The notes under the pieces were generated by a model. That model made no database searches, was not told where the DNA came from, and worked only from the letters and a program-made list of their open reading frames with translations. 64,000 nucleotides of DNA from an uncultured archaeon (GTDB taxonomy: Archaea; Asgardarchaeota; Thorarchaeia; Thorarchaeales; Thorarchaeaceae): the NCBI GenBank assembly GCA_964473825.1, contig CAYYQL010000002.1, forward strand, positions 128,001 to 192,000, written 5' to 3'. Shown here piece after piece: positions 12,217 to 64,000 of this stretch (its first letter is position 1; the number at the start of each line of letters is the position of its first letter). Both the position numbers and the translations under genes were made by a program.

Positions 12217-12660
12217 CTAGCGAATTGGTTTCTCGGCCTTACCATAGATTAGAGACTCAAGGCTGACGCCATTGACCTTGATAACTTTCCATCGCACGCC
12301 CGGAAGGTCACCCATAGCCCCACCCATTGCACCGCCGATGCCTTCCACAAGCACTTGATCGTGTTCGTCTATGTATTTTAGACCGCCATCGCCCGGGATG
12401 AAAGCTGTGATTTGTTTACCATTCTTGGACAACTGCAATCGAACAGCCTTCCTTATAGCCGAGTTTGGTTGCTTACTCTCAATTCCAACCTTCTCAAGCA
12501 CAATTCCTCGAGCCTGAGGAGCTCCCTCTAGAGGATCGGTCTTCTTCCTTAGATTCAATACTTGCCTTTTGTAGCTGGCCTTCTTCCATCTAAATCGCTT
12601 TCTCTTGGCCTTTAATGCCCGGCCAGCGAATTCGCCCAACGGACTCTTCGACCCTGTCAA
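12217..12660 (-). CDS. rps12: 30S ribosomal protein S12 (uS12)
   Basis: [29 protein letters not shown]. Confidence 0.98.
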
Positions 12661-44519: not shown

Positions 44520-46439
44520 CTATTCCTTCCTCAATACTCGTTGGACTTCTTTCTCTAGCATCTCCTTGACTTTCTTGCCATCTGCCTTTCCTTTTAGCTC
44601 TTTCATGGCAATTCCCATCAGCCCACCAACGGAGCGTTCTCCCTGTTCCTGAATGAAGTCAGTTCGATTCTCAACAATTTTCTGGATGATGGCGCTGATT
44701 TCCTGATCAGCAACCATCTGAAGGTCCAGAGCACTGACTGCGTTAGCTAGATTATGATCGGGATTCTCCGCTAGGTATGAGAGAATGTCGGGCAGAGCTT
44801 CTGCTGAGATTTCCTCAGCCTCTATTGCATAAAACACCTGGAGAATCAGATCTTCACTGATATTCTCCACAGGAACGCCCTCACGATTAAGGCTAACCAA
44901 TGTGTTTTCCAGCGTAACAGCGACTAAGGTCGGGGAAACCTCTGTTTCATCTATTACTCTCTCAAAAGTATCGAGATTCAGAGAGCGTACGATGAGAGAT
45001 GCTAGCTCTTCGCTTAGGTCAAGTGTTTCAACAAAGCGTTTCTTCTTCGACTTCAGAGATTCTGGCATGCTGGAAAGAATACGCTTGTGCCGTGAATCCG
45101 TAATCTTGACTGGACGTACATCTGTTTCGGGGTACATCCGTTCCGCCCCTGGACGGGGACGAGCATAACGAGTTGTACCATTTGGTAGTGGAGTGCGTGT
45201 TTCCGCCGGTACGCCCTCCAGTGCTCTCTTAGCACGGTCCAATACAGCCGTGAAGCTATCCGTTCCGCTTTCCTCGTCTGCAACTACGAGGACTACTGCG
45301 TCTTGGGATTCTGCAGATACAGCTGTTCTTAGCCCCTTTATCTCGTCTGCTGAGATTCCATACGCTGGTAGTTCGTCGGTGTGAAAGATGCCCCCGACTC
45401 CACCCCAGAATTTCGCATAGTCTGAGAACTCCGTTCCGAGTCGCCTCTCTGGCTGAATCTCCCGTCCTATCAAACCAGCAAATCCCGGCAGACAGATAGC
45501 ATAGGCTCTGTCACCTTTTTGGAGAGCCCGTTTGATGGTTCTTGATTCTGAGTTCTGGAAGACCGATGAAACATTAGTAATCTCTTCTCCGATGTCTTGA
45601 GATTCGATTCCTCTTTCTCTGAGATTATGAGCAATTTCTAGGAGATTTTTCTGCCGAAGGGCTTCATTCTCTACAATACTGGCAAGCATGTCAAGTTGCT
45701 GGAGACCCTTGATCTCAGTTATTGCTCCACCCTTGATTGATACATTAACATCTTGTCTGATACTTCCAAGCCCTCTCTTCACCTTCTTTGTGGACCTGAG
45801 CAAGAAACCGATAGTGAGCGCCACTTCTTGTGCTTCCTGAGGTGTGGAGATGTCAGGTGCCGTTGCAATCTCGATGAGAGGAATTCCTAGTCTGTCGAGA
45901 CGATAGGTACGTATGTTCTTCTTCTCATCCTCATCTGTCTTACGAGCGGCATCCTCCTCAAGGCAGATTGTCTGGATACCGATTGGTTTGTCATTGACTA
46001 ATATACTGCCCCCCATGGCTATGACAGCAGTTCTCTGAAATCCCGTTGTGTTGCTACCATCAATCACTATCTTTCTCATCGGGTGGATTTCATCCATAAC
46101 ATTAGAATCCAAGAAATGAGCCATTATTAGGGAAATATCTATTGACTCTTCATCAATCTCGTGAGGTGGTTCTTCATCTGCCTCGACCAAGCAGGTCGTG
46201 CTGTTGTAATACTCGTAATAGAAGAGCTTCTTTCGCTGGAATTCGAAGAGTGCTGCAGGATCAATTTCTCCGAGTTCGCTTTGTGTAGGGCGTAGGCGTC
46301 GTAAGAATCCACCGTCTGGTTCATCATCTCGTATTACTGTTGGGCAGTGACAGAATAGCTTCCTTGTAGTTTCAAGTTGTTGGTGAAGTTCAAGCCCGAC
46401 CTTCAGCCCTAGCTTCTCGAAGTCAAGGGCGTCCGTCAT
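44520..46439 (-). CDS. gatE: Glu-tRNA(Gln) amidotransferase subunit E
   Basis: GLELHQQL, DGSNTTGFQRT, LDRLGIPLIEI, RMYPETD. Confidence 0.97.
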   Translation of the reverse strand: MTDALDFEKLGLKVGLELHQQLETTRKLFCHCPTVIRDDEPDGGFLRRLRPTQSELGEIDPAALFEFQRKKLFYYEYYNSTTCLVEADEEPPHEIDEESIDISLIMAHFLDSNVMDEIHPMRKIVIDGSNTTGFQRTAVIAMGGSILVNDKPIGIQTICLEEDAARKTDEDEKKNIRTYRLDRLGIPLIEIATAPDISTPQEAQEVALTIGFLLRSTKKVKRGLGSIRQDVNVSIKGGAITEIKGLQQLDMLASIVENEALRQKNLLEIAHNLRERGIESQDIGEEITNVSSVFQNSESRTIKRALQKGDRAYAICLPGFAGLIGREIQPERRLGTEFSDYAKFWGGVGGIFHTDELPAYGISADEIKGLRTAVSAESQDAVVLVVADEESGTDSFTAVLDRAKRALEGVPAETRTPLPNGTTRYARPRPGAERMYPETDVRPVKITDSRHKRILSSMPESLKSKKKRFVETLDLSEELASLIVRSLNLDTFERVIDETEVSPTLVAVTLENTLVSLNREGVPVENISEDLILQVFYAIEAEEISAEALPDILSYLAENPDHNLANAVSALDLQMVADQEISAIIQKIVENRTDFIQEQGERSVGGLMGIAMKELKGKADGKKVKEMLEKEVQRVLRKE

Positions 46440-53021: not shown

Positions 53022-53366
53022 TAGATTGTCCTCTGGTAGCAGAACATCACTTCTGGAATCTTAAAAACATCTTGATTTCCTAGTCATTTTGTCAGAAAAA
53101 AGTGTCAGATATGTGTAAGATTTCCTCCTTGCTGACACGTAGTCTTGAACACTCTCAGGGGAGGGATGGAACGCAGAAGTCTCTTACAGGTGACGTTCAC
53201 TCACCAAATTGTAAGAAACGGATTATTATCAACTCACCATTAATCCTCAAAGGGTGATTCTGCAAGATATCGTATTACTGATATTACAATAGAGTAAAAT
53301 GGCGCCGTAACCCTCAAAGATAGCCTTAAAAAACTAGTAGTTGATGAGGAGTTGAGGTGCTACTGC

Positions 53367-54569
53367 ATGCCAGGTACTACCGATGCTAAGAAAGATGGAA
53401 GCCTAGATGACTCGTCGTATACACAAAGCTATACACGACACCTTGAGCGTCGACTTAGGGCATTGGAAACAGAGAAACAGATTCTACAGGCAGAGCGCAG
53501 TAGGCTTGAGAAAGAAACACAGACACTTAGAACCGAGCTCGAAAAGCTCAGACAGTCACCACTGATAACTGCAACAATAATTGACATGTTAGAAGACGGA
53601 AGAGCGATAGTGAAGAGCTCCACAGGACCGAATTTCGTTGTTCATGTCGCTTCATCAATCTCAAGAGATAAACTACGCTCCGGTATGAGAGTTGCTCTGA
53701 ATCAGAGATCGTTTTCTGTCACTCAGGAGCTTCCACCTTCGCGCGACCCGATGATTCGTGCCATGGAGATTGAGGAAGCGCCGGATGTATCATATGTGGA
53801 CATAGGTGGTCTCAGAGAGCAAATAGATGAAATCAAAGAAACAGTTGAGTTGCCGCTCTTGAAACCCCATGTTTTTGCTGAGGTGGGTGTTGAACCTCCA
53901 AAGGGTGTTCTTCTAACGGGACCTCCGGGAACCGGGAAGACGCTGTGCGCACGTGCAGTTGCCCATGAAACCAATGCCACATTTATCCGTGTTATCGGAT
54001 CTGAGTTAGTCCAGAAATTCATAGGCGAGGGAGCACGACTCGTGAGAGAAATCTTCATGTTGGCAAAGGAAAAGGCTCCCGCGATTGTCTTTGTTGACGA
54101 GCTGGACGCAGTAGGGTCTCATCGGCTAGATATTGCAACTTCAGGGGACAGGGAGGTTCAGCGAACACTCATGCAGCTTCTCAGCGAGCTGGATGGCTTT
54201 GAAGCTAGGGGGCAGGTGGCAGTTCTAGGCGCCACCAATAGACCAGATATTCTGGATCCGGCCCTGCTTAGACCAGGCCGTTTCGATAGGATAATCCAGT
54301 TCCCAAAGCCAGATAGTCATAGTCGACTTGAGATATTCAAGATTCATACACGTGGAATGAAACTAGATTCTGAATTGGACTTCGGTTTCTTGGTGTCTGC
54401 AACTGAGGGAACCACCGGGGCCGACATCAAGGCAATCTGCACGGAAGCAGGAATGTTCACAATCCGAGATAGTAGAGTCTGTGTTGGTCAGGAAGATTTT
54501 CGGAAAGCAATAAACAAAGTACAGACACGCGGTACAGGTGATCAAGCCCCTAGCGGAATCTATTGTTGA
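53367..54569 (+). CDS. pan: Proteasome-activating nucleotidase
   Basis: Coiled coil/OB, GPPGTGKT, DELD, LRPGRFDR, HbYX tail IYC. Confidence 0.97.
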   Translation: MPGTTDAKKDGSLDDSSYTQSYTRHLERRLRALETEKQILQAERSRLEKETQTLRTELEKLRQSPLITATIIDMLEDGRAIVKSSTGPNFVVHVASSISRDKLRSGMRVALNQRSFSVTQELPPSRDPMIRAMEIEEAPDVSYVDIGGLREQIDEIKETVELPLLKPHVFAEVGVEPPKGVLLTGPPGTGKTLCARAVAHETNATFIRVIGSELVQKFIGEGARLVREIFMLAKEKAPAIVFVDELDAVGSHRLDIATSGDREVQRTLMQLLSELDGFEARGQVAVLGATNRPDILDPALLRPGRFDRIIQFPKPDSHSRLEIFKIHTRGMKLDSELDFGFLVSATEGTTGADIKAICTEAGMFTIRDSRVCVGQEDFRKAINKVQTRGTGDQAPSGIYC

Positions 54570-54597
54570 ATGGAATAGTCCAGTAATTGTGAAGTGA

Positions 54598-55425
54598 ATG
54601 AGATACCGTACTTATCTTGAGCGTGAATTGAAAGGGCAAATCCCCGAAGGTGCAAGAATACCTAGAGGCTATCACCTCATAGGACATGTCATCCTACTTG
54701 AGGTTGATCTATCACTACGGGGTTTTATACAGGAAATTGCTGAGTTGAGTCTTGCTTATGAATCACGAGCCAAGAGTATTCTCGTCCGGAATGGGCCAAC
54801 TTCTGGTGAGCATAGAATACCATCATATCGATTCATAGCGGGGGATCCAAATACAGAAACGGAACATATAGAGAATGGGGTTCGATTCAGGCTGGACCCG
54901 ACCAAGGTGACCTTCTGTGGTGGAAATCGAGCTGAACGAATACGTATGGGGTCTAGCGTTCACGAGAATGAACGGATTGTTGATATGTTCGCTTGTGTGG
55001 GACAGTTTGGAATTCATTTTGCCAAGACGGGAGGAGCAGAAGTTACGTGTATAGAGATTAATCCTGAAGCATTTCGGTATTTGGAGAAGAACATTGTGCT
55101 TAATGGAGTAGAGAACAGAGTTCGGGGCATCTTAGGAGATTGTAGAGAAAAGGTACCAAGAGAATGGGCTGATAGGATTGTCATGGGGTATCTAGACAAT
55201 ACTTGTGACTACTTGCCGTATGCTTTCAAAGCGTTGAAAGCTGGTGGCGGGGTTGTCCATATGCATATTTCGGCACCACTGCACGAGAGAGATTCTATTG
55301 GGAGGACCATAGGTTCGATAGGACTAGCAGCTGGCTTCTCAATATCTTATAATGTACGAGAAATCAAGAGCTACGCACCGGGTATCGTACATCTGGTGTA
55401 TGATGTTGACGCAATTCCATCCTAG
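54598..55425 (+). CDS. Trm5/Taw2-family SAM-dependent tRNA-modifying enzyme
   Basis: HIENG, DMFACVGQF, EINP, ADRIVMGY, IKSYAPG. Confidence 0.88.
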   Translation: MRYRTYLERELKGQIPEGARIPRGYHLIGHVILLEVDLSLRGFIQEIAELSLAYESRAKSILVRNGPTSGEHRIPSYRFIAGDPNTETEHIENGVRFRLDPTKVTFCGGNRAERIRMGSSVHENERIVDMFACVGQFGIHFAKTGGAEVTCIEINPEAFRYLEKNIVLNGVENRVRGILGDCREKVPREWADRIVMGYLDNTCDYLPYAFKALKAGGGVVHMHISAPLHERDSIGRTIGSIGLAAGFSISYNVREIKSYAPGIVHLVYDVDAIPS

Positions 55426-55506
55426 ATGCAGTATAACGTAATCGTTTTATCATCACAACTGGGAGCTAGCTACTAGAAGTAAACCGGTTATGACGAGGAA
55501 TTCAGA

Positions 55507-55890
55507 ATGGGATTCAGAGGAGTGTCACCAAAGCAGCTTGCACGAATGATGAAGAAGATGGGTATTGAACAGAAGGAGGTGCCCGGTGCCAAAGAAGTGA
55601 TTATTCGATTTGAGGACAAGGAATGGGTGATAAACAGTCCACAGGTGACTATGGTCAAACAAGGGGGTTCCGAGACCTATCAGATTGGAGGAGATCGCTC
55701 CGAACGAGGTCTTACAACAGGAAGTGCTCCTGAGAAACGTGAGGAATCGAAAGAGCAGGAGATTGAAATCCCAATGGAAGATGCAGCTCTTGTGGCTAGT
55801 CAAGCTGGCGTCGATGTGGAACGAGCAAAAGAGGCTCTGAAAGAAACAAAGGGCGATCTTGCAGCTGCAATTCTTAGACTAAAATCGTAA
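55507..55890 (+). CDS. nac: Nascent polypeptide-associated complex protein
   Basis: MMKKMGI..EVII; UBA-like LVASQAGV..GDLAAAIL. Confidence 0.93.
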   Translation: MGFRGVSPKQLARMMKKMGIEQKEVPGAKEVIIRFEDKEWVINSPQVTMVKQGGSETYQIGGDRSERGLTTGSAPEKREESKEQEIEIPMEDAALVASQAGVDVERAKEALKETKGDLAAAILRLKS

Positions 55891-56163
55891 TATTGGTATT
55901 ACAATTCAAGCATATCTTGGATTTGGTGATAATTCCGTTGATGGTTACATCAGCTCTAAGATTTAGGACTCGCCGTGCTTTTCGGCAATCTTCAGTTCGG
56001 TCTTGAAACCAGAAACATTGCATGTGCTGTTGTTGTAACATAGGGGTGTCATTCATTCGATTTGTGAATGGATTGAAGCATTAATCATAGCTGCTATGTG
56101 GCTCCGGCAACCCTGAGATGTCCATCTTCGTCCAAGTATTCTATAGTTGCTGGTGTGCCCTGA

Positions 56164-56442
56164 CTATGCGAAAGTGTATGCAAGTGCAGATACTAGAATC
56201 ATGAAGATACAGACAAGAATCCATTGTCTTAGGTACCTCTTGGTAAGTTTTGGACGCTCATTGATTTGACCAGTCACTATTAGAGTCATTGCGGAGATGA
56301 AGAGAAAAGCAAAAGGCAATGACACCGAGCTCGTGCTGAGTGGGGTATCAGTTATCACTATTATTGCAGCAAGACCACCAAAGATGAGAAAGGAGATGAT
56401 CATCAGCGAGTTTAGTACGTGTCGGACCCTATCAGTATTCAT
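56164..56442 (-). CDS. Small 3-TM membrane protein
   Basis: Three hydrophobic segments. Confidence 0.7.
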   Translation of the reverse strand: MNTDRVRHVLNSLMIISFLIFGGLAAIIVITDTPLSTSSVSLPFAFLFISAMTLIVTGQINERPKLTKRYLRQWILVCIFMILVSALAYTFA

Positions 56443-56661
56443 TTTATCTGGCTCCGTGAATTCTGGCCAGGTGTTTCAGGAATCGGACACTAGAAAAAGA
56501 TTGTGTAATCTGCTCGTTTGCTTGCAGGTCCCTTGAGAAAGGATCGGGATTTGTAGAGTGTGTTTATGAGGGAATGTAGCCGCATTGCTTATAACACAAT
56601 GTTGTATTACAAGAACTACTCTTGATACAGTATGTTAGTTTCGACTTCAGAGGTCTAGAAC

Positions 56662-57636
56662 ATGACAATTGCAATTCACGAGTCGGCTCTGATCCGGCAC
56701 TTCAATACGCGCAAAGAAACTCTTCGTATGTGGGAAGAGAAGATCGGCTGTAGGTTCTCTCCCTTCCGTGGATTCAAGATGCCAGATAGCCGGTTGTACG
56801 TTGAACATCCCGATTTCTTAGATGCAATAGTTGACTTAGTCTTGACAAATGAGAGACATATATTTCTCCGTGGAGCTGTTGGTTCGGGCAAGAGCACACT
56901 GATGCTTTTAGCCTTGCGAGACCTACCAACACTTGCTGATAGAAGAGGTAACAAGTTCGTCACTGGATATGTGGGCATGACAGGACTTTATGAGAAACAG
57001 ATGGCTGCGGCAATCGCTGATTCTTTGCGTATCAAGTATCGACGTTCTTGGGAGTCTAGTCAGATAATCGAGGCAGTAGCAGAAGAGTGTCTCAGACGAT
57101 ACGTAGAGGAAAACAGTAGAACCGCACTGTTCATTGAAGATGTTGCTGATAACCAGGAAGCAGCATTTCACAAACTGCGATTCCTCGCAGACTTGCCTAC
57201 TGAGGAGATGGTTGAGGAACATCCTGAACCATTGGATGAGCCTATTGTCACTCTGATTATGTCAGGTACAGCCGAATACTGGAATGCTATGCTGAACTTT
57301 CTCCCCCAAATAGCAGATAGGACCGAACCATTGGATGTGCCACCTTTGGAAGATGCCAAGGCAAAGGAATTCATTGGTAGAAGAATTGCTTATGCGCGGG
57401 GGAACATAGATGAATTTGACAAGAACGATTTTGACATCAGCCCATTCAGTGAGGAGGCAATCGAGATAATCAATGATGCAGCTGGCGGTAACCCGCGGGA
57501 TATACGGATGCTTGCTAGAGGCTGTCAGCAAGTTGCCGCAGAGAATTTCAAACAACGAGGCGATCCAACAGTTGGCCGGGAGATAGCCAGTCTTGTTGCT
57601 GATGCTTATGATACCATACTCAGAGAGGTGCGCTAA
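56662..57636 (+). CDS. AAA+ ATPase (ExeA/TnsC/Cdc6-like core, no winged helix)
   Basis: Walker A GAVGSGKS, deviant Walker B LFIED, IMSGT, QIADR arginine finger, GGNPRDI. Confidence 0.88.
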   Translation: MTIAIHESALIRHFNTRKETLRMWEEKIGCRFSPFRGFKMPDSRLYVEHPDFLDAIVDLVLTNERHIFLRGAVGSGKSTLMLLALRDLPTLADRRGNKFVTGYVGMTGLYEKQMAAAIADSLRIKYRRSWESSQIIEAVAEECLRRYVEENSRTALFIEDVADNQEAAFHKLRFLADLPTEEMVEEHPEPLDEPIVTLIMSGTAEYWNAMLNFLPQIADRTEPLDVPPLEDAKAKEFIGRRIAYARGNIDEFDKNDFDISPFSEEAIEIINDAAGGNPRDIRMLARGCQQVAAENFKQRGDPTVGREIASLVADAYDTILREVR

Positions 57637-57927
57637 GTGAGTCTACTAGGAAAATACAGAAAGGAATCTGAGAAGGAGGAAAGCGAAGCTGCTTCTGATA
57701 CCACTACAAGGGTTCGTAAGGAAGAAGAAACACGGGAATCGGTTCCGAACAAAGAACGGAAGAGTCCTATTGTCTCTTTTTCGATTGATGCAGATCTTAG
57801 AGAGTGCCTACAAGCTATCAGGAAGGCAAAAGCAATCAATCTGAGTATGTGGGTTGAGAAGAAGTTGAAAGCTGCAGTCTTCAGCGAGTTCCCACGAATA
57901 GCTGAGCAGTTCTTGGAATCTACCTGA
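57637..57927 (+). CDS. Putative ribbon-helix-helix DNA-binding protein with disordered N-terminus
   Basis: IVSFSID strand, helix ADLRECLQAIRKAK, INLSMWVEKKL; GAGGTG SD; starts immediately after the ATPase stop. Confidence 0.78.
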   Translation: MSLLGKYRKESEKEESEAASDTTTRVRKEEETRESVPNKERKSPIVSFSIDADLRECLQAIRKAKAINLSMWVEKKLKAAVFSEFPRIAEQFLEST

Positions 57928-58060
57928 TTATGTAGCACATTGACCTTCCCGATTGCCTTCTCGAGAGAGTTGTTAAGGCATCCGGCTAGAGTACTGCTCA
58001 ATTGGGAACCTCTGATTAGTAGATTCACTGTAACTCAGATATGTAATAACCGTAATACAG

Positions 58061-59434
58061 TTATTTCTTGGTGGCCTTGTGCATCTCGGCAAATTGGGTG
58101 ATACGATCCATACAGAGAATAGCGGTGGATGGATCATCATAACATGGGATTCTGTTCATCTCAAGCAAATCCTTACCCGGTTTTCCAACATCGCCAGCAA
58201 GCCAGACACCCACAACAGGTTTGTTGGTTCTAGATGTCCTTACACCCTCTAAGGTGCCAGCCGCGTGTTCGGTCTGTGTCATCCCTGCAAATGTAGGGAC
58301 ACCGCAGAGCACAAGAAGCATGTCGATGCTTGGATCGCGCAGCATAAGTTCGGTGGCCACTCTGTATTCTCTTCTCCCACCACTTGCCACTACATCTACA
58401 GGATTGTCAGTCGCTGCCATAGGTGGCAGGACTTCGTATAGTCTATCGCGAGTTTCTGAAGAAAGATGTGGAATCTCTAGCCTGTATCGTGAGGCTTCAT
58501 CTGTGGCCAAGACCCCTGCGCCTCCTGTATTACTAATAATACCAATATTACGACCCATCGGAAGTGGTTGGTAATCAAAGAGCTTCGCGATTTCGAATAG
58601 AGTATCTAGAGTGGGAGCTGTTACACAGCCAGCCTGACGGATTGCCGCCCCGAAGACCTTGGAAGAGCCAGCAAGAGATCCTGTGTGGGATTTCGTAGCC
58701 CGTGCGCCAGCTTTACTCGTGCCACCTTTCAGGACAACAACTGGTTTCCTTTCGGAAGCTCGCTTCAATGCTTGGTATAGCGCACGTCCTTTCTCAACTC
58801 CTTCGACATAGACAGTTATCACTGTGGTCTTTGAGTCATTGCGCAAGTAGTCAAGTAGTTCCACAAAACCGACATCAGCTGCGTTGCCTATGCTTGCAAA
58901 CTTGCTCATGCCAATTCTTTTTGCACGAGTTGTGTAGATTATCATTCCTCCGAGAGCACCACTCTGCGAAATCAGGGCTATATTACCTCGTTCAGGCATC
59001 ATCGTGAATGTGCCGTTGAAGAGACGGCTGTTTGAAACTCCGACACAATTAGGTCCAATTATTCTGACATCTGATTCCTTCGCGGCTTTGACTAGCTTGT
59101 TCTCAAGGATTGCCCCTTCTTCGCCTACTTCACTGAATCCACCAGATATTATCACTGCGTTCCTAGCTCCTGTTTCACGGATGTCCTTCATCAGTGATGG
59201 ACAGTATTTCGCAGCGATAGCTACAATGACCAGATCAACAGGTTCTGGAATCTCTTTGAGACTCTCGTAGGCCTTCACTCCCATGACCTGTTCTCGACTC
59301 CGCGTTACTGGATAACTGTCTAGTTCAGAAGCAAGGAGATTCATAAGCAGAGAATTTCCCAGTTTCCGGTAATCGGCAGAGGCCCCGACTAGAGCGACTC
59401 TTCTTGGATTGAAGAAGGGGTCAATGTCTGACAT
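58061..59434 (-). CDS. ADP-forming acyl/acetyl-CoA synthetase alpha subunit
   Basis: FFNPRRVALVGAS, IIGPNC, SQSGA, SHTGSLAG, DNPVD. Confidence 0.93.
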   Translation of the reverse strand: MSDIDPFFNPRRVALVGASADYRKLGNSLLMNLLASELDSYPVTRSREQVMGVKAYESLKEIPEPVDLVIVAIAAKYCPSLMKDIRETGARNAVIISGGFSEVGEEGAILENKLVKAAKESDVRIIGPNCVGVSNSRLFNGTFTMMPERGNIALISQSGALGGMIIYTTRAKRIGMSKFASIGNAADVGFVELLDYLRNDSKTTVITVYVEGVEKGRALYQALKRASERKPVVVLKGGTSKAGARATKSHTGSLAGSSKVFGAAIRQAGCVTAPTLDTLFEIAKLFDYQPLPMGRNIGIISNTGGAGVLATDEASRYRLEIPHLSSETRDRLYEVLPPMAATDNPVDVVASGGRREYRVATELMLRDPSIDMLLVLCGVPTFAGMTQTEHAAGTLEGVRTSRTNKPVVGVWLAGDVGKPGKDLLEMNRIPCYDDPSTAILCMDRITQFAEMHKATKK

Positions 59435-59843
59435 ATTGGGATGGCACAATTGTGTTTGATTTATGTCTGTCGTAGGTTGGCCACCTTTGAAGTTCAATTC
59501 TCAAATCCGACCGATAAGATGTGAAGATGCAAGATGTTGTAATACTATTATTATGACTAATAGAGTCGTAGGGAGGGAGAGATCGGTACTGTCTTTTTTC
59601 CTCCACGTATACACCCATGATGCGATTTCGTTCTTCCGTGAAATAACGGAGGATATTCGCCAATGTCATGACAATCCTTTTCAGCATTTAACGGTCAGTC
59701 GTATACAAAATTGTATCCGCTGAAACGAACAGAAATAGAGTAAGTTGAAGGAGCCCTCATAACTCTTTATTTATAGTTTGAAGAGTTATGGGCTCTGTTA
59801 CGAAATGCCTCTATTAGAGGTAACATGATTCATAGGTGGAAGA

Positions 59844-60395
59844 TTGAAAATGACCGGTTCTGACCAGAAACGAAGTAGTACAAAAGCTGTTGCATCAAAT
59901 GTGAAGAAGACTTTGAAGGAGCCTATACTACAAGGGCTACTTGACCGGAGTGGCTTGACCGAAGTGCAGCTAGAAACCCTATTGATTGATCTGGTCATAG
60001 AAGATCTGATTGATGGCAGTGTGCCCTATGAGAAGAAGGCATCTCTAAGGTCTCGAGAAGGCAGTAGATCACTGGGAGTGAGTCGGGGGGCATTCAATCG
60101 TACTTTGCACCAAGCGCGGCGGAATGTAACCAAGGCAGTGCATACTATGCTTCTTCTTGCCTATCTTGATTTATTCGATCTGAATATCTTTCGTCCTTTC
60201 GAAGAAGTTGCAGGGGAAATCCGGAAATATCGAAACATCAGAGATGTGTTAGCTGGCAGAGCAGAGCTCTCAGCCGAGGATTTAGAGAGTTATCGTACAG
60301 CAGAAAGAGCAATCATAAGCGCTGTTGATGACCTTACATCTCCGCTCATTTTGAAATCTGAGAATTCGAAAAAACAGGCAGGCTTCGGACGTTAA
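59844..60395 (+). CDS. Hypothetical HTH-type DNA-binding protein
   Basis: LTEVQLETL...GVSRGAFNRTLHQARRN resembles a sigma-r4/LuxR-like HTH. Confidence 0.7.
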   Translation: MKMTGSDQKRSSTKAVASNVKKTLKEPILQGLLDRSGLTEVQLETLLIDLVIEDLIDGSVPYEKKASLRSREGSRSLGVSRGAFNRTLHQARRNVTKAVHTMLLLAYLDLFDLNIFRPFEEVAGEIRKYRNIRDVLAGRAELSAEDLESYRTAERAIISAVDDLTSPLILKSENSKKQAGFGR

Positions 60396-60817
60396 GGTAT
60401 GTAATATTTGTAATACTGTCATCTTGGGTTTGAATAGAGAGCATCAGTCAAGAACTAAAAAAGAAAAATGGCACGAGTGTGCCGCGCTGAAGCAATCAGG
60501 CATGTTCCAACCGTTGCTACGGAATCATCTTGGAGGTTTGTGTTTGAGGAGATAGAGATGCCGTAACTGACGATTGAAGATCCGGGAAGGACCTAGCCGT
60601 CATTATCTCTATCAACACGACACACTCACTATTATTGTGGGATACGGGTATACATAGTTCTAATCCTAGAACGAGGATTTTCCGCTTGGATTTGTGCGAC
60701 TTTCTGTCTTTGGCATTCCAGTTTCTCCGCATAATACTTGTAATACAGTATCGTGATAGAGAAGAATCCTTATTCGCAAGATGTTAGGACTGTTTGAGCG
60801 GCACAATCGCGTCTTAG

Positions 60818-62050
60818 GTGATACAAGTGAGTGGAAAACGACGCCTAGATGAATTGCGCAAAAGGGCAGAACAACACTCTAGGAATTCGGAAAAAGCACG
60901 AGTTCAAGAATCCATCACAAATGCAATCGGTGATAGAAGAGGAAGGGATCTTGTAGACCAGATTTCGAAGATTGAGAAGCATTCAGGATGGGAGCATGTG
61001 GTGGAGGTATTGGCTTCAGCGCGGCTTGCAGAGTATTCTACTCCTATAGCACTCGGATTCCAGAAGAGGAAGCTGGAACCGTTGAAGTTCAGAGAGGTGT
61101 TGTTCGGACTCTTTTCATGTTCAGGTTTTGAACCGATAGATGTTCCCACCGAAGAGATTCTTAATCAGCTTTATGAAGTTGATAGTTTCGTTAAGGCGAA
61201 CACTCTATTCCGGGCTCTTATTGAAAATCATGCTTCGAATCAGATTAAATCAGGAGACCTGTTATTCTTCTCAGGGGACTCGTGGAATTCTGACATAACT
61301 GAGAGAGTCAACTCGCTACAAGAGAGTCAAATGGAGAATTTTGTTCTACCCAGTGTGAATGAGAATGTTCAACTACAGAAACTATGGAGGACAGAGTTAG
61401 GACGCCGCCTGCTTGCTAATCTAGGTGTGAAAGGGACTATCCTCAATCTCGATAGTGATGTAATACAGATATTAACTGTATCATTTCCTGGTTTGACAAC
61501 GACAACAGAGAAACAAGTGAAGGCCAACTCACAGATACCTAACGTTCCTTCCCTTCCGGTTTATGACCGTCTGCTTACGGCTATTATTGAGCATGAGATA
61601 GAAGATCTCCGGAACCTAGGTAGTCAATGGGCATATCCAGTTCTTGACTACTACGTGAGTGAGTCACTGAGAGATTATTTGGAAAGTGATAGTCCAGAGG
61701 AGTATCGGCGATATCTGAGTGGTCTCAATGCACATATTGCGGTCCGTGCTGTTGAATCGATATCTACGTTCCAGAAACTCATAGAAAGAATTGACGTCCC
61801 TAGAGTTTCAGAGCCAGCAGCACTTGCCCTGGGAAACTTCTTCACTGAACCAGCCATCGCTGTTCTCTTGGAAAAAGTCTGTTCTACGTTAGATGAAACA
61901 AGCGAAGCTGCTCTGAGAGCATTGCAACGGATTCATGACTTTACACCCGAAGCTGAGCCAATGATAAGACTGGCAGCTGAGACCAACTGCAGGTCAGCTG
62001 CAAGACTGAATGCAATACTGGAAACACGTATTTGGAGCTCATCGCGTTGA
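60818..62050 (+). CDS. Hypothetical helical protein with C-terminal HEAT-like repeats
   Basis: 410-aa ORF; PAALALGN, EAALRALQRI. Confidence 0.75.
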   Translation: MIQVSGKRRLDELRKRAEQHSRNSEKARVQESITNAIGDRRGRDLVDQISKIEKHSGWEHVVEVLASARLAEYSTPIALGFQKRKLEPLKFREVLFGLFSCSGFEPIDVPTEEILNQLYEVDSFVKANTLFRALIENHASNQIKSGDLLFFSGDSWNSDITERVNSLQESQMENFVLPSVNENVQLQKLWRTELGRRLLANLGVKGTILNLDSDVIQILTVSFPGLTTTTEKQVKANSQIPNVPSLPVYDRLLTAIIEHEIEDLRNLGSQWAYPVLDYYVSESLRDYLESDSPEEYRRYLSGLNAHIAVRAVESISTFQKLIERIDVPRVSEPAALALGNFFTEPAIAVLLEKVCSTLDETSEAALRALQRIHDFTPEAEPMIRLAAETNCRSAARLNAILETRIWSSSR

Positions 62051-62096
62051 TTGCGGCCAATCGTATTACAAGTATTCCTTATAATACGTGACGTTC

Positions 62097-62501
62097 TTAT
62101 CGTGGAAGTGTCCATTCTGAATGCTCTTCAACTGGAACAAACCCCAGGATTAAGTTGCCTCGAACTTCATCGAACTTGAACACTCCGAAAATATGGCGGT
62201 CGCTACTGTTCCCCCAATCGATTCTTTGTCGAGCGATCAGGTTCTCAAAGAGAGACCTGCATTGTCGCCTTACCGTCAAGAAAAGATTCCGATACCGTCT
62301 GCGTTGAGATGGTCGGATATCCCACCGCTCTAGAATAAAACGATTGGCAAGGCTATTGCTCGAGATCAGGATTGATCTCTTTTTCATGTTTGACAACTGT
62401 ACACTCTCTTCCAGTGCCTTTCTCAAAATATCAGGAGCGGTTGCCAGAATAGACGGCGTTGCGATTGGTTCTTTGAATGCTATGCTGTTCTTCTTGGACA
62501 A
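62097..62501 (-). CDS. Hypothetical basic protein
   Basis: 134-aa ORF, GAGG SD, Arg-rich. Confidence 0.7.
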   Translation of the reverse strand: MSKKNSIAFKEPIATPSILATAPDILRKALEESVQLSNMKKRSILISSNSLANRFILERWDIRPSQRRRYRNLFLTVRRQCRSLFENLIARQRIDWGNSSDRHIFGVFKFDEVRGNLILGFVPVEEHSEWTLPR

Positions 62502-62660
62502 ATGCCTCGACCATCCTCACACTAATACTGTGTGTCTTGGCTTAAGAAGACCACAATCAAGATGAACGCATCAGCCGCCTAACAACTGCACACTCTCTTC
62601 CAGTTCCTTCTTCGGTGAACTAATATCATTACACGGACCTAGCTTTCAGGGTGTAGTGTG

Positions 62661-64000
62661 TTGAAACAAAGAGCCAGAATTCACGTTACAGGTATAGTAC
62701 AGGGAGTTGGATTCAGGCCCTTCATCTTTCGTCAGGCAAAAGAACGGTCTCTACAAGGTTATGTCCTCAATCTCGGAGATGCTGGCGTTAGAATAGTGAC
62801 AGAGGGCGATGAAGAGAAAATCCAAGATTTCATTCAAGAGATACAGAGTAATCCACCATCGATATCACGCATAGAAACTCTGGATACTGAATGGATGGAA
62901 CCAACCGGAGAATTCAACGACTTCGTTATCAAGAAATCATCGACCGGAAGAAGCAAGGATGCTGCACCTGAGATTCCACCAGACATAGCAATATGTCGGG
63001 ACTGTGTTGAAGACCTATTTGATCCAAATTCTCGGTGGCACCTCTACCCCTTTACATCGTGTGCTGCCTGTGGACCTCGGTTTTCCACTATCACCGACCT
63101 TCCTTACGATAGACCCAATACAACCATGGATGATTTTCCACTATGTGATACTTGTAATACGGGTTATACAAATCCACTCGATAGAAGGTACCATGCTCAA
63201 ACCACAGCGTGTGAGAGGTGTGGTCCTTCCTACAGACTTGTTGATAAGCAAGGAAATCTAGTCGAAGATGAAGATCCTGTTCCTGTTGCTGTATCTATGC
63301 TTGACCAAGGAAGGATTGTAGCGCTACAAGGAATATCTGGTACGCATCTTGCCACAATAGTGTCAGATCCTAATCCAATACGCAAGTTGCGTCGAAGGAA
63401 GCGAAAGTCGCATCGCCCCTTTGCTGTGATGTTTCGGGATATCGAAACCGTCAAGACACAGTTTGACCTCAGTGATATGGAACAGGACTTGCTCTTATCA
63501 TGGAGAAGGCCTATTGTTCTCTTGACTATTGGAGACGATGTATCACGTGTAATACCTCAGTCTTCAATTGACCAGATTGCACCTGGCCTGGATAGCATAG
63601 GAGTGATGCTGCCCTATGCGCCGATGCATCATATGCTATTCGAGTATACAGATGAACCCGCATTGATTATGACGAGTGCAAATCCGTCCGGTGTCCCCAT
63701 GTACATCGAACCAGACAGGATTATTTCGGACCTGAGAGATATTACTGATTTCTCTCTTGTTCATGATAGACGAATTCATCAACGGGCAGACGATTCTGTC
63801 ATTAAACCATTGACCAAGTCGAAGGCGGTATTCATTCGTCGTTCACGTGGTTACGTTCCAGAACCGATAGGGGTTCGTGGTCCTTGGGGCGACTTGACCG
63901 GTATTGCTGTTGGACCTGAAGAGAAAGTCACGGGATCTGTGCTCAAGGCTAGCAACGCCTACCTTACACAGTACATTGGTGATGTCGACAAAGTAGAAAC
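62661..64000 (+). CDS. hypF: [NiFe]-hydrogenase maturation carbamoyltransferase HypF (partial, runs off window)
   Basis: Manual translation MKQRARIHVTGIVQGVGFRPF; IPPDIAICRDC, CAACGPRF, LPYDR, DRRYHAQ. Confidence 0.95.
   Translation, partial: MKQRARIHVTGIVQGVGFRPFIFRQAKERSLQGYVLNLGDAGVRIVTEGDEEKIQDFIQEIQSNPPSISRIETLDTEWMEPTGEFNDFVIKKSSTGRSKDAAPEIPPDIAICRDCVEDLFDPNSRWHLYPFTSCAACGPRFSTITDLPYDRPNTTMDDFPLCDTCNTGYTNPLDRRYHAQTTACERCGPSYRLVDKQGNLVEDEDPVPVAVSMLDQGRIVALQGISGTHLATIVSDPNPIRKLRRRKRKSHRPFAVMFRDIETVKTQFDLSDMEQDLLLSWRRPIVLLTIGDDVSRVIPQSSIDQIAPGLDSIGVMLPYAPMHHMLFEYTDEPALIMTSANPSGVPMYIEPDRIISDLRDITDFSLVHDRRIHQRADDSVIKPLTKSKAVFIRRSRGYVPEPIGVRGPWGDLTGIAVGPEEKVTGSVLKASNAYLTQYIGDVDKVE

Follow-up and report, generated by a model that had tools for sequence, protein, structure and literature searches.

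Introduction

In the partition system of plasmid pSM19035, the small ribbon-helix-helix (RHH) protein omega reads 7-bp heptads cooperatively. In the chromosomal SegAB-segS system of Sulfolobales, the motif of SegB is a 13-bp palindrome (TCTAGA-S-TCTAGA) with 32-49 sites scattered genome-wide, ~83% of them intragenic, and with one cluster beside the operon (PMC8682754; 10.1101/2025.02.07.637068; PMC12139799). Another small RHH protein, aCcr1 of Sulfolobales and their viruses, was shown experimentally to bind AGTATTA (ccr-2 box, TGTATTAT) (PMC9976892), and the widely conserved oriC1 of Sulfolobus is laid out as two origin recognition boxes (ORBs) around a duplex unwinding element (DUE), ORB-DUE-ORB (PMC12141716). 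Here, we describe a locus of a Thorarchaeota genome in which a field of GTAWTAC heptads surrounds a two-gene operon for an AAA+ ATPase and a small RHH-like protein, p96, and runs up to a predicted replication origin. The stretch analyzed, hereafter the window, comprises 64,000 nucleotides (G000:C2:128001-192000), with G000 denoting the studied assembly of 3.27 Mb in 103 contigs.

Our literature searches returned no description of the module, of the heptad field or of Thorarchaeota origins. We put the probability at roughly one half that p96 assembles on the field as on a centromere-like platform close to the origin, on which the AAA+ ATPase would work as a motor. In broader terms, the ATPase, p96 and the field most likely form a chromosome-partition or origin-organizing system. 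This reading is argued from the combination of a nucleoside triphosphatase (NTPase) gene with a gene for a tailed RHH-like protein, the phased repeats that go with the latter, the site at the operon promoter, the position at the origin and the replacement by ParA-ParB in another family, all of which are presented below.

Phased heptads form a single field in the genome

The field extends beyond the end of the window, where the last paired site lies at ~66.5 kb and the last exact heptad at ~68.2 kb in window numbering.

G000:C2:181272-196241, unstranded: whole heptad field, window 53272 to about 68.2 kb, ~15 kb; the part inside the window is 53272-64000

The window holds 19 exact copies of GTAWTAC, a count reached by none of 100 shuffles of the window, which served as the chance level (mean 3.16, maximum 9). 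Twelve of the 19 copies fall at 53272-63555, and all positions that the original prediction, made from the window alone, had listed there are present. The chance rate it assumed, about one copy per 8 kb, was too generous, since the shuffles give ~1 per 20 kb and the 149 exact copies of the 3.27-Mb genome amount to 1 per 22 kb. The partners at a 9-bp offset were recovered at every listed place, together with extra ones at 59539/59548 and 63549/63540, and, as claimed, convergent 3' ends flank the sites at 55887, 58043 and 62063.

The expected single genome-wide peak of the tandem motif at this locus was also found. Strict pairs (RTAWTAY-N2-RTAWTAY) occur eight times in the whole G000 assembly, seven of them at C2:181272-193008. 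When at most 2 mismatches were allowed (relaxed pairs), the number rose to 24, with 20 at C2:181272-194491 and a 21st at C2:174206, 7 kb upstream; the reversed pattern, used as a control over the whole assembly, gave 0 matches. Phasing was tested on 13 pooled loci, namely the G000 field and 12 related loci, by measuring how far each exact heptad is offset from the following heptad that has no more than one mismatch. An offset of 9 bp was by far the most frequent (n=92), followed by 18 bp (n=22), and any other offset to 60 bp was seen 0-3 times. In the same 13 loci no conservation was found outside the two or three heptads, which are therefore not part of a longer repeat or mobile element. The site list showed no orientation bias of the central A/T relative to the origin.

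The in-window sites, all unstranded, are the following:

53272-53287: site 1, pair GTATTAC-tg-ATATTAC, located 65 bp upstream of PAN
55887-55902: site 2, pair that overlaps the stop codon of NAC, flanked by convergent 3' ends
56604-56628: site 3, degenerate triple with a TATA-like box on one side and the ATPase start on the other
58043-58067: site 4, two to three heptads right after the p96 stop codon, between convergent 3' ends
58527-58551: site 5, triple inside the gene for ADP-forming acyl-CoA synthetase (ACS), codons RNIGIISNT
59539-59554: site 6, pair 42 bp upstream of the ACS start
60401-60416: site 7, pair just after the u183 stop codon
60731-60746: site 8, pair upstream of the HEAT-repeat gene
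61460-61475: site 9, pair inside the HEAT-repeat gene
62063-62087: site 10, triple between the convergent 3' ends of the HEAT gene and u134
63145-63169: site 11, triple inside hypF, codons CDTCNTGYT
63540-63555: site 12, pair inside hypF

That the field has no function and arose by chance from base composition, as a mobile element or as a chimeric assembly, is hardly conceivable. In favor of such an origin, the final 14 kb of the window are slightly poorer in GC (0.45 vs 0.49); against this stand the shuffles, the housekeeping genes in conserved synteny, the conservation of the field across genera and inside genes described below, and its location in the middle of a 269-kb contig (C2).

Separately, an isolated pair, GTAATAC-tc-GTAATAG, lies at window 46206-46221 within an open reading frame of 659 aa, 7 kb upstream of the field. 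It is the sole relaxed pair of the window outside the field, and a similar pair recurs in L028, L031 and L032.

The sites are conserved within the family, also inside genes

We compared 19 loci fetched from 16 genera of the family to which the studied genome belongs (f1). All of them are syntenic between PAN and the origin and contain the field, with GTAATAC among the commonest 7-mers in each. In every f1 genome in which the region is assembled, strict pairs are nearly all confined to one locus. Thirteen of the loci carry 10-22 site clusters each in ~15 kb; many site positions are conserved, and sites bracket the operon in every f1 genome. The field thus shares with type Ib partition cassettes the iterated short repeats next to the operon, including a set over its promoter. 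The position of site 3, a candidate autoregulatory operator, is occupied in most f1 genomes and that of site 4 in nearly all.

The 204 site clusters of the 13 loci are distributed over genes and gaps alike: 81 (40%) fall within genes, 32 in gaps flanked by convergent 3' ends, 23 in gaps flanked by divergent starts and 62 in gaps between tandem genes. Of the total length, 78% is coding, and the intergenic 22% holds 57% of the sites. The sites hence favor gaps, fill every gap whatever its promoters, and are also written into long genes. The intragenic share of 40% and the 32 clusters between convergent 3' ends imply that they are not simple operators.

For the intragenic sites, positions were set by G000 alone, then scored in the other genera and ranked among all 16-mers of the respective gene. 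Among the 16-mers of their genes, the ACS triple, three of the HypF sites and the site in the HEAT gene all belong to the top 0.1-0.7%, with the motif retained in 10-17 of 13-17 genomes. Site 5 falls in the top 0.5% of ACS 16-mers; site 9 is kept in 13 of 13 other-genus genomes, even though the HEAT protein is only ~30% identical between genera; and site 11 is kept in 12-14 of 15. Site 12 is less conserved (6 of 15 genomes), and three further intragenic sites are not conserved in other genera. Because intragenic sites outrank the other 16-mers of their genes and persist despite ~30% identity of the HEAT protein, the DNA itself is under purifying selection at most sites.

These distributions bear on the alternative that the field is a local regulon, in which p96 would be a cell-cycle regulator of the aCcr1 type, the heptad pairs would be operators of PAN, NAC, ACS, HypF and other genes, and the ATPase would be accessory or unrelated. 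The binding of aCcr1 to AGTATTA in promoters of cell-cycle genes (PMC9976892), the intergenic enrichment and the site overlapping the operon promoter would all fit. However, 40% of the sites are intragenic with DNA-level selection, and those between convergent 3' ends have no promoter to serve; the motif is essentially absent from the remaining genome, which would be odd for a regulator; site spacing looks regular rather than gene-linked; and the distant family f27 has its sites crowded into a single non-coding array behind the operon. We regard such a regulon as distinctly unlikely.

Four f1 genomes (G015, G144, G207, G237) show no ATPase and 0-1 tandem sites. They also lack NAC and HypF matches, from which we conclude that the region is simply unassembled and not naturally lost. 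In these four genomes, the whole origin-side block seems prone to drop out of assemblies or bins.

The operon encodes a predicted initiator-clade ATPase and an RHH-like protein

The two genes of the operon abut, the p96 start being the base directly after the ATPase stop codon.

56662-57636, + strand: AAA+ ATPase, 324 aa, first gene of the operon with p96
57637-57927, + strand: p96, 96 aa

The ATPase is 78-98% identical across f1 genera and as conserved as PAN. Pfam returned only weak AAA_22 and AAA_16 matches, and the structure model (predicted local distance difference test, pLDDT, 87.5) was more informative: the top Foldseek matches in the PDB are archaeal Orc1/Cdc6 and Drosophila Cdc6, followed by TnsC (1w5t, 1fnn, 2qby, 2v1u; 7plh, 7m99), with template modeling (TM) scores of 0.52-0.59 on the query at 12-17% identity. 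Invariant positions are G74, G76, K77, T79, D160, T203, R220 and R279, covering Walker A, Walker B, sensor 1, Arg and sensor 2. A GNPR motif at sensor 2 and an initiator-type two-helix insert between beta-2 and beta-3 are further features. Taken together, the model and these motifs place the protein in the initiator clade of AAA+ ATPases, with an Orc1/Cdc6- and TnsC-like fold.

Other assignments were considered and discarded. The protein is not a divergent Orc1/Cdc6, as it stops after the lid and lacks the C-terminal winged helix; Pfam gave no Cdc6_C or Cdc6_lid match, and the Orc1/Cdc6 model TIGR02928 misses the gene. Nor does its predicted fold agree with a ParA-type motor of the deviant Walker-A ParA/MinD kind. 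Homologues bear the database name ExeA/GspA secretion ATPase, but the best NCBIfam score is 30.9 bits vs a cut-off of 324.5, and the neighbors are origin and housekeeping genes without any association with secretion.

p96 begins with a conserved peptide, MSLLGKYRK, in which L-x-K-Y-R is invariant, continues with a variable, charged linker that is predicted to be disordered, and ends in a strand-helix-helix domain (residues 43-96). About half of the top 50 structural neighbors of this domain are RHH proteins, including omega (2bnw), SegB (7duv, 7dv2; Z 4.0), the ParB of pCXC100, NikR, PutA and several antitoxins. Its language-model neighbors are Arc, CopG, ParG and other RHH clusters. A tblastn search against phages gave no match. 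We refer to p96 as RHH-like on the basis of these predicted similarities.

The field ends at a predicted replication origin

C2:195672-195840: predicted origin, ORB-DUE-ORB, ~3.7 kb past the window end
59844-60395, + strand: u183, 183 aa, conserved origin neighbor with a helix-turn-helix (HTH)-like segment, GVSRGAFNRTL.QAR.N

Two inverted ORB copies start at C2:195672 and 195822 and flank an AT-rich spacer of 121 bp, and a third copy lies at C2:199916. They follow the pattern C-T-A-[CG]-T-G-G-A-A-A-[CT]-[GA]-A-A-G-G-G-G-T, are the only three such elements in the G000 assembly, and are conserved at the same position in relatives. The cumulative GC skew of contig C2 turns at 185-195 kb. Inverted ORBs around an AT-rich unwinding region that are unique in the genome are what defines an ORB-type origin, and we predict that this element is a canonical one, with the same architecture as oriC1 of Sulfolobus (PMC12141716). 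The field ends there: only one exact heptad lies on the far side, just past u96, and none was found between the two ORBs. TIGR02928 matches four other loci in G000. Two bona fide orc1/cdc6 genes are located elsewhere, one of them 24 kb away.

The genes in and around the field are ordinary genes of the chromosome. They encode TFE-alpha, aMBF1, PAN, Trm5/Taw2, NAC, a small membrane protein, the ATPase and p96, ACS, u183, the HEAT-repeat protein, a basic 134-aa protein (u134), HypF, IorA and a basic 96-aa protein (u96), as well as alanine and saccharopine dehydrogenase-like proteins. A mobile element or integrated plasmid was rejected on account of the conserved synteny of aMBF1, TFE-alpha, PAN, Trm5/Taw2, NAC, ACS, HypF and IorA.

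Several observations concern this neighborhood in its own right. The genes u183 (window 59844-60395), u96 (L003:7898-8188) and u210 (L003:10999-11631) form an origin neighborhood common to at least six Asgard families, and none of the three has a Pfam family. The block of u183 and the HEAT gene (window 59500-62100) is inverted relative to other f1 genera (compared with L015:6400-8930), with both breakpoints at heptad sites (59539 and 62063). Three copies of an 18-bp palindrome of the type TTGGAACACATGTTCCAA bracket the ORB pair and u96 (G000:C2:195644-196222; L003:7644-8222), a span about 3.6-4.2 kb past the window end. The same type flanks the origin in a distant family, at L033:11733-11750 and as two tandem copies at 12437-12470.

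Related modules in other Asgard families

The labels f1, f2, f3, f7, f13, f19 and f27 denote Asgard families sampled. The ATPase was detected in seven Asgard families and not in the other families sampled. The arrangements are as follows:

f1: ATPase and p96; GTAWTAC at 9 bp, scattered along ~15 kb; field adjoins the ORB pair
f27: ATPase 40-43% identical and p96 homologue with the same N-terminal peptide; GTAWTAC; ORB ~16 kb away
f19 and f7: ATPase and a different RHH-like protein with the strand NFNVR[LM]P; GATATC at 13 bp; gene order u210, ORB, u96, ORB pair, ATPase, RHH-like gene, u183, HypF
f3: ATPase and RHH-like partner; no clear private repeat found (G026); beside ORBs and orc1/cdc6
f2: ATPase and p96 homologue; a lone 7-N4-7 pair upstream in place of a field; the block also contains an ORB
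f13 (closed genome): no module; ParA-ParB located between ORBs and the u183 homologue

The repeats of the other families are as local as those of f1. In f27, 6-10 GTAWTAC tandem sites are found in a ~1-kb gap behind the operon, with more upstream and between both genes; the compact array is at L035:9353-10303. In a closed f19 genome of 3.58 Mb, all 6 copies of GATATC-N7-GATATC lie within 11.5 kb round the origin and the operon, and in two f7 genomes the single genome-wide copy is at the operon. The predicted RHH strand and the private repeat co-vary across the families. The private GATATC repeat loci (L039, at G060:C1:1632001-1652000, L033 and L041) include pairs beside ORBs.

This co-variation, together with the near-constancy of u183, bears on the question of who reads the heptads. 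The reader could be u183, u134, u96 or an unlinked factor, with the ATPase-p96 operon merely sitting in the field. The conservation of these three proteins in the block would agree with that, as would the f27 array, which also lies upstream of u183, and the missing sequence-level RHH family assignment of p96. The HTH segment of u183, however, is near-constant across families with GTAWTAC, with GATATC or with no field, and of the same type in f1 and f2, so it does not track the repeat. The RHH strand, in contrast, differs between repeat types; sites bracket the operon in every f1 genome, and the private copies of f7 occur only at the operon. A reader other than p96 seems quite improbable to us.

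In f13, the ParA-ParB pair fills the interval that is occupied by the AAA+-RHH pair in f7 and f19. The order there is orc1/cdc6, three ORBs, two small open reading frames, ParA, ParB, two further small open reading frames and the u183 homologue (L045:5553-10391, G036:C1). The distributions of the ATPase and of ParB_N over the families are largely complementary, where ParB_N also occurs in non-partition proteins and the genomes are related.

A role in replication control, rather than in DNA movement, must be weighed here. The RHH-marked field and the Orc-like ATPase would then regulate firing or helicase loading and exit at oriC, either through an auxiliary complex resembling an initiator or by sequestering or remodeling the flank of the origin once in each cycle. 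The nearest folds of the ATPase (Orc1/Cdc6 and Cdc6) and its initiator-type insert speak for this, as do the linkage of the module to ORB origins in f1, f3, f7 and f19 (in f27 within ~16 kb of an ORB) and a field that abuts the origin and stops there. On the other hand, bona fide Orc1/Cdc6 proteins are encoded elsewhere, canonical ORBs already define the origin and no heptads lie between them, f13 fills the same interval with ParAB and not with a replication factor, and a tailed RHH protein with an NTPase and repeats is a partition layout. Replication control is in our view an unlikely explanation.

As a side observation, pairs with a 4-bp spacer occur upstream of the operon in G030 of f7 (GTAATAC-acac-GTATTAC, L033:11483-11500) and in G025 of f2 (GTATTCC-gatt-GTAATAC, L029:9223-9247); the spacer in f1 is 2 bp.

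Proposed mechanism and its assessment

Further parts of the original prediction agree with the data above. The organism is indeed an Asgard archaeon, homologues of the window's proteins being listed under Thorarchaeota in public records. The small RHH protein is RHH-like by both fold and language-model neighbors, the tandem motif accompanies the ATPase-RHH pair in every f1 genome with the region assembled and in the distant f27 as well, and a GC-skew switch and a canonical ORB-DUE-ORB element are located at the field edge.

For the platform reading, we propose the following course of events. Dimers of p96 would bind each GTAWTAC heptad, which is a near-palindrome, and two or three of them would sit side by side at the 9-bp phase. 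That an archaeal RHH protein can read sequences of this type has an independent precedent in aCcr1, which binds AGTATTA (PMC9976892). About 16 such sites, one per ~1 kb, would cover the 15 kb from the PAN promoter to oriC, and the one over the operon's own promoter would provide autoregulation. The N-terminal peptide of p96, on its flexible linker, may engage the co-translated ATPase, which has no sequence-reading domain of its own and would assemble on or between the marked sites. ATP turnover might then compact, pair, position or separate newly replicated origin regions, and in this way contribute to segregation.

A number of points weigh against this model. Some of them concern p96: its structural Z-scores are low (3-4.4), the monomer model cannot form the ribbon of the RHH fold, none of 18 homologues matches an RHH family in Pfam, and no PDB sequence match was obtained. 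The strand KIITFKI of aCcr1 resembles PIVSFSI of p96 by eye only. BLASTP gave no alignment between p96 and the 59-aa ORF59b of SIRV2, which we take to be aCcr1/gp21 from its size. To our knowledge, no AAA+ ATPase is known to drive partition, and the nearest predicted folds of this one, being replication initiators, would suit a replication role equally well. G000 also encodes MinD/ParA-superfamily ATPases elsewhere, so p96 could have another partner. For a centromere, it is unusual that the field flanks the origin on just one side. Among the relatives, f2 (G025) carries the operon without a field, and a de novo search there gave no other 9-bp-phased heptad; the GTAATAC-N4-GTATTAC pair of G030, which occurs despite a different RHH strand, blurs the co-variation of strand and repeat. 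Finally, the genomes compared are relatives and not independent samples.

In its most general form, the platform reading would mean that several Asgard lineages segregate or organize their origin by a new class of partition machine, in which an Orc1/Cdc6-related AAA+ motor works with an RHH adaptor that carries a tail and with phased repeats specific to each lineage (GTAWTAC at 9 bp, GATATC at 13 bp). Such repeats could extend into a dual-coded field with kilobase spacing next to oriC, and the machine would replace ParABS in the same interval of the genome. We advance this generalization tentatively and at somewhat less than even odds. If true, an initiator-clade AAA+ motor would join the ParA, actin-like and tubulin-like motors as a fourth type of partition motor, and an ORC paralogue would have been put to use in handling the chromosome in the archaea most closely related to eukaryotes. 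Should the module serve partition, an ORC-like paralogue would be acting on chromosome architecture beside the origin.

The locus offers a testable system in the form of two small soluble proteins and a defined DNA site of 16-25 bp. Whatever its function, the field is a clean origin marker for metagenome-assembled Thorarchaeota genomes. It likewise provides a clear natural example of putative protein-binding sites selected inside coding sequence, and a case of a repeat sequence and its putative reader protein changing together between lineages.

Comparison with known systems

Overall, the module is best described as a cassette of the partition kind whose motor belongs to another class and whose putative centromere is dispersed and dual-coded, although the chance that it is more distant from known systems is considerable. 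Its closest counterparts are the type Ib cassettes, ParF-ParG-parH of TP228 and delta-omega of pSM19035. These, too, are two-gene operons in which an NTPase gene precedes that of a small tailed protein, RHH in the cassettes and RHH-like here, and they have short repeats iterated in either orientation that serve as centromere and operator, to which the field can be likened; the f27 version likewise has a compact array beside the operon. In contrast to these cassettes, the NTPase studied here is predicted to belong to the Orc/Cdc6/TnsC clade of AAA+ proteins and not to the deviant-Walker ParA proteins, and its heptads are set at 9-bp spacing instead of being contiguous, dispersed over 15 kb, extended into genes, chromosomal and next to an origin.

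SegAB is likewise archaeal and chromosomal, with a disordered N-terminus in SegB and many sites. SegA, however, is ParA-type and its sites are scattered, whereas the present locus combines an AAA+ motor with one 15-kb field at oriC. We did not assign the module to SegAB, given the AAA+ ATPase, the other motif, and the fact that SegB is only a weak fold neighbor of p96 with no sequence homology detected. The heptad shares the GTATTA core of the aCcr1 box, but aCcr1 has neither tail nor ATPase partner and its sites are located in promoters genome-wide.

With chromosomal ParABS the locus shares multiple sites close to oriC and, through f13, a matching interval that is filled by ParAB. It differs by having no ParB (a CTPase with HTH), no ParA and another site architecture. 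Compared with Orc1/Cdc6 and TnsC, finally, the ATPase shares the predicted fold, the initiator-type insert and the GNPR motif, as well as a location at the origin. It departs from Orc1/Cdc6 by the lack of a C-terminal winged helix and of a match to the family model. Its DNA targeting is presumably left to a separate RHH protein, much as a partner targets TnsC.

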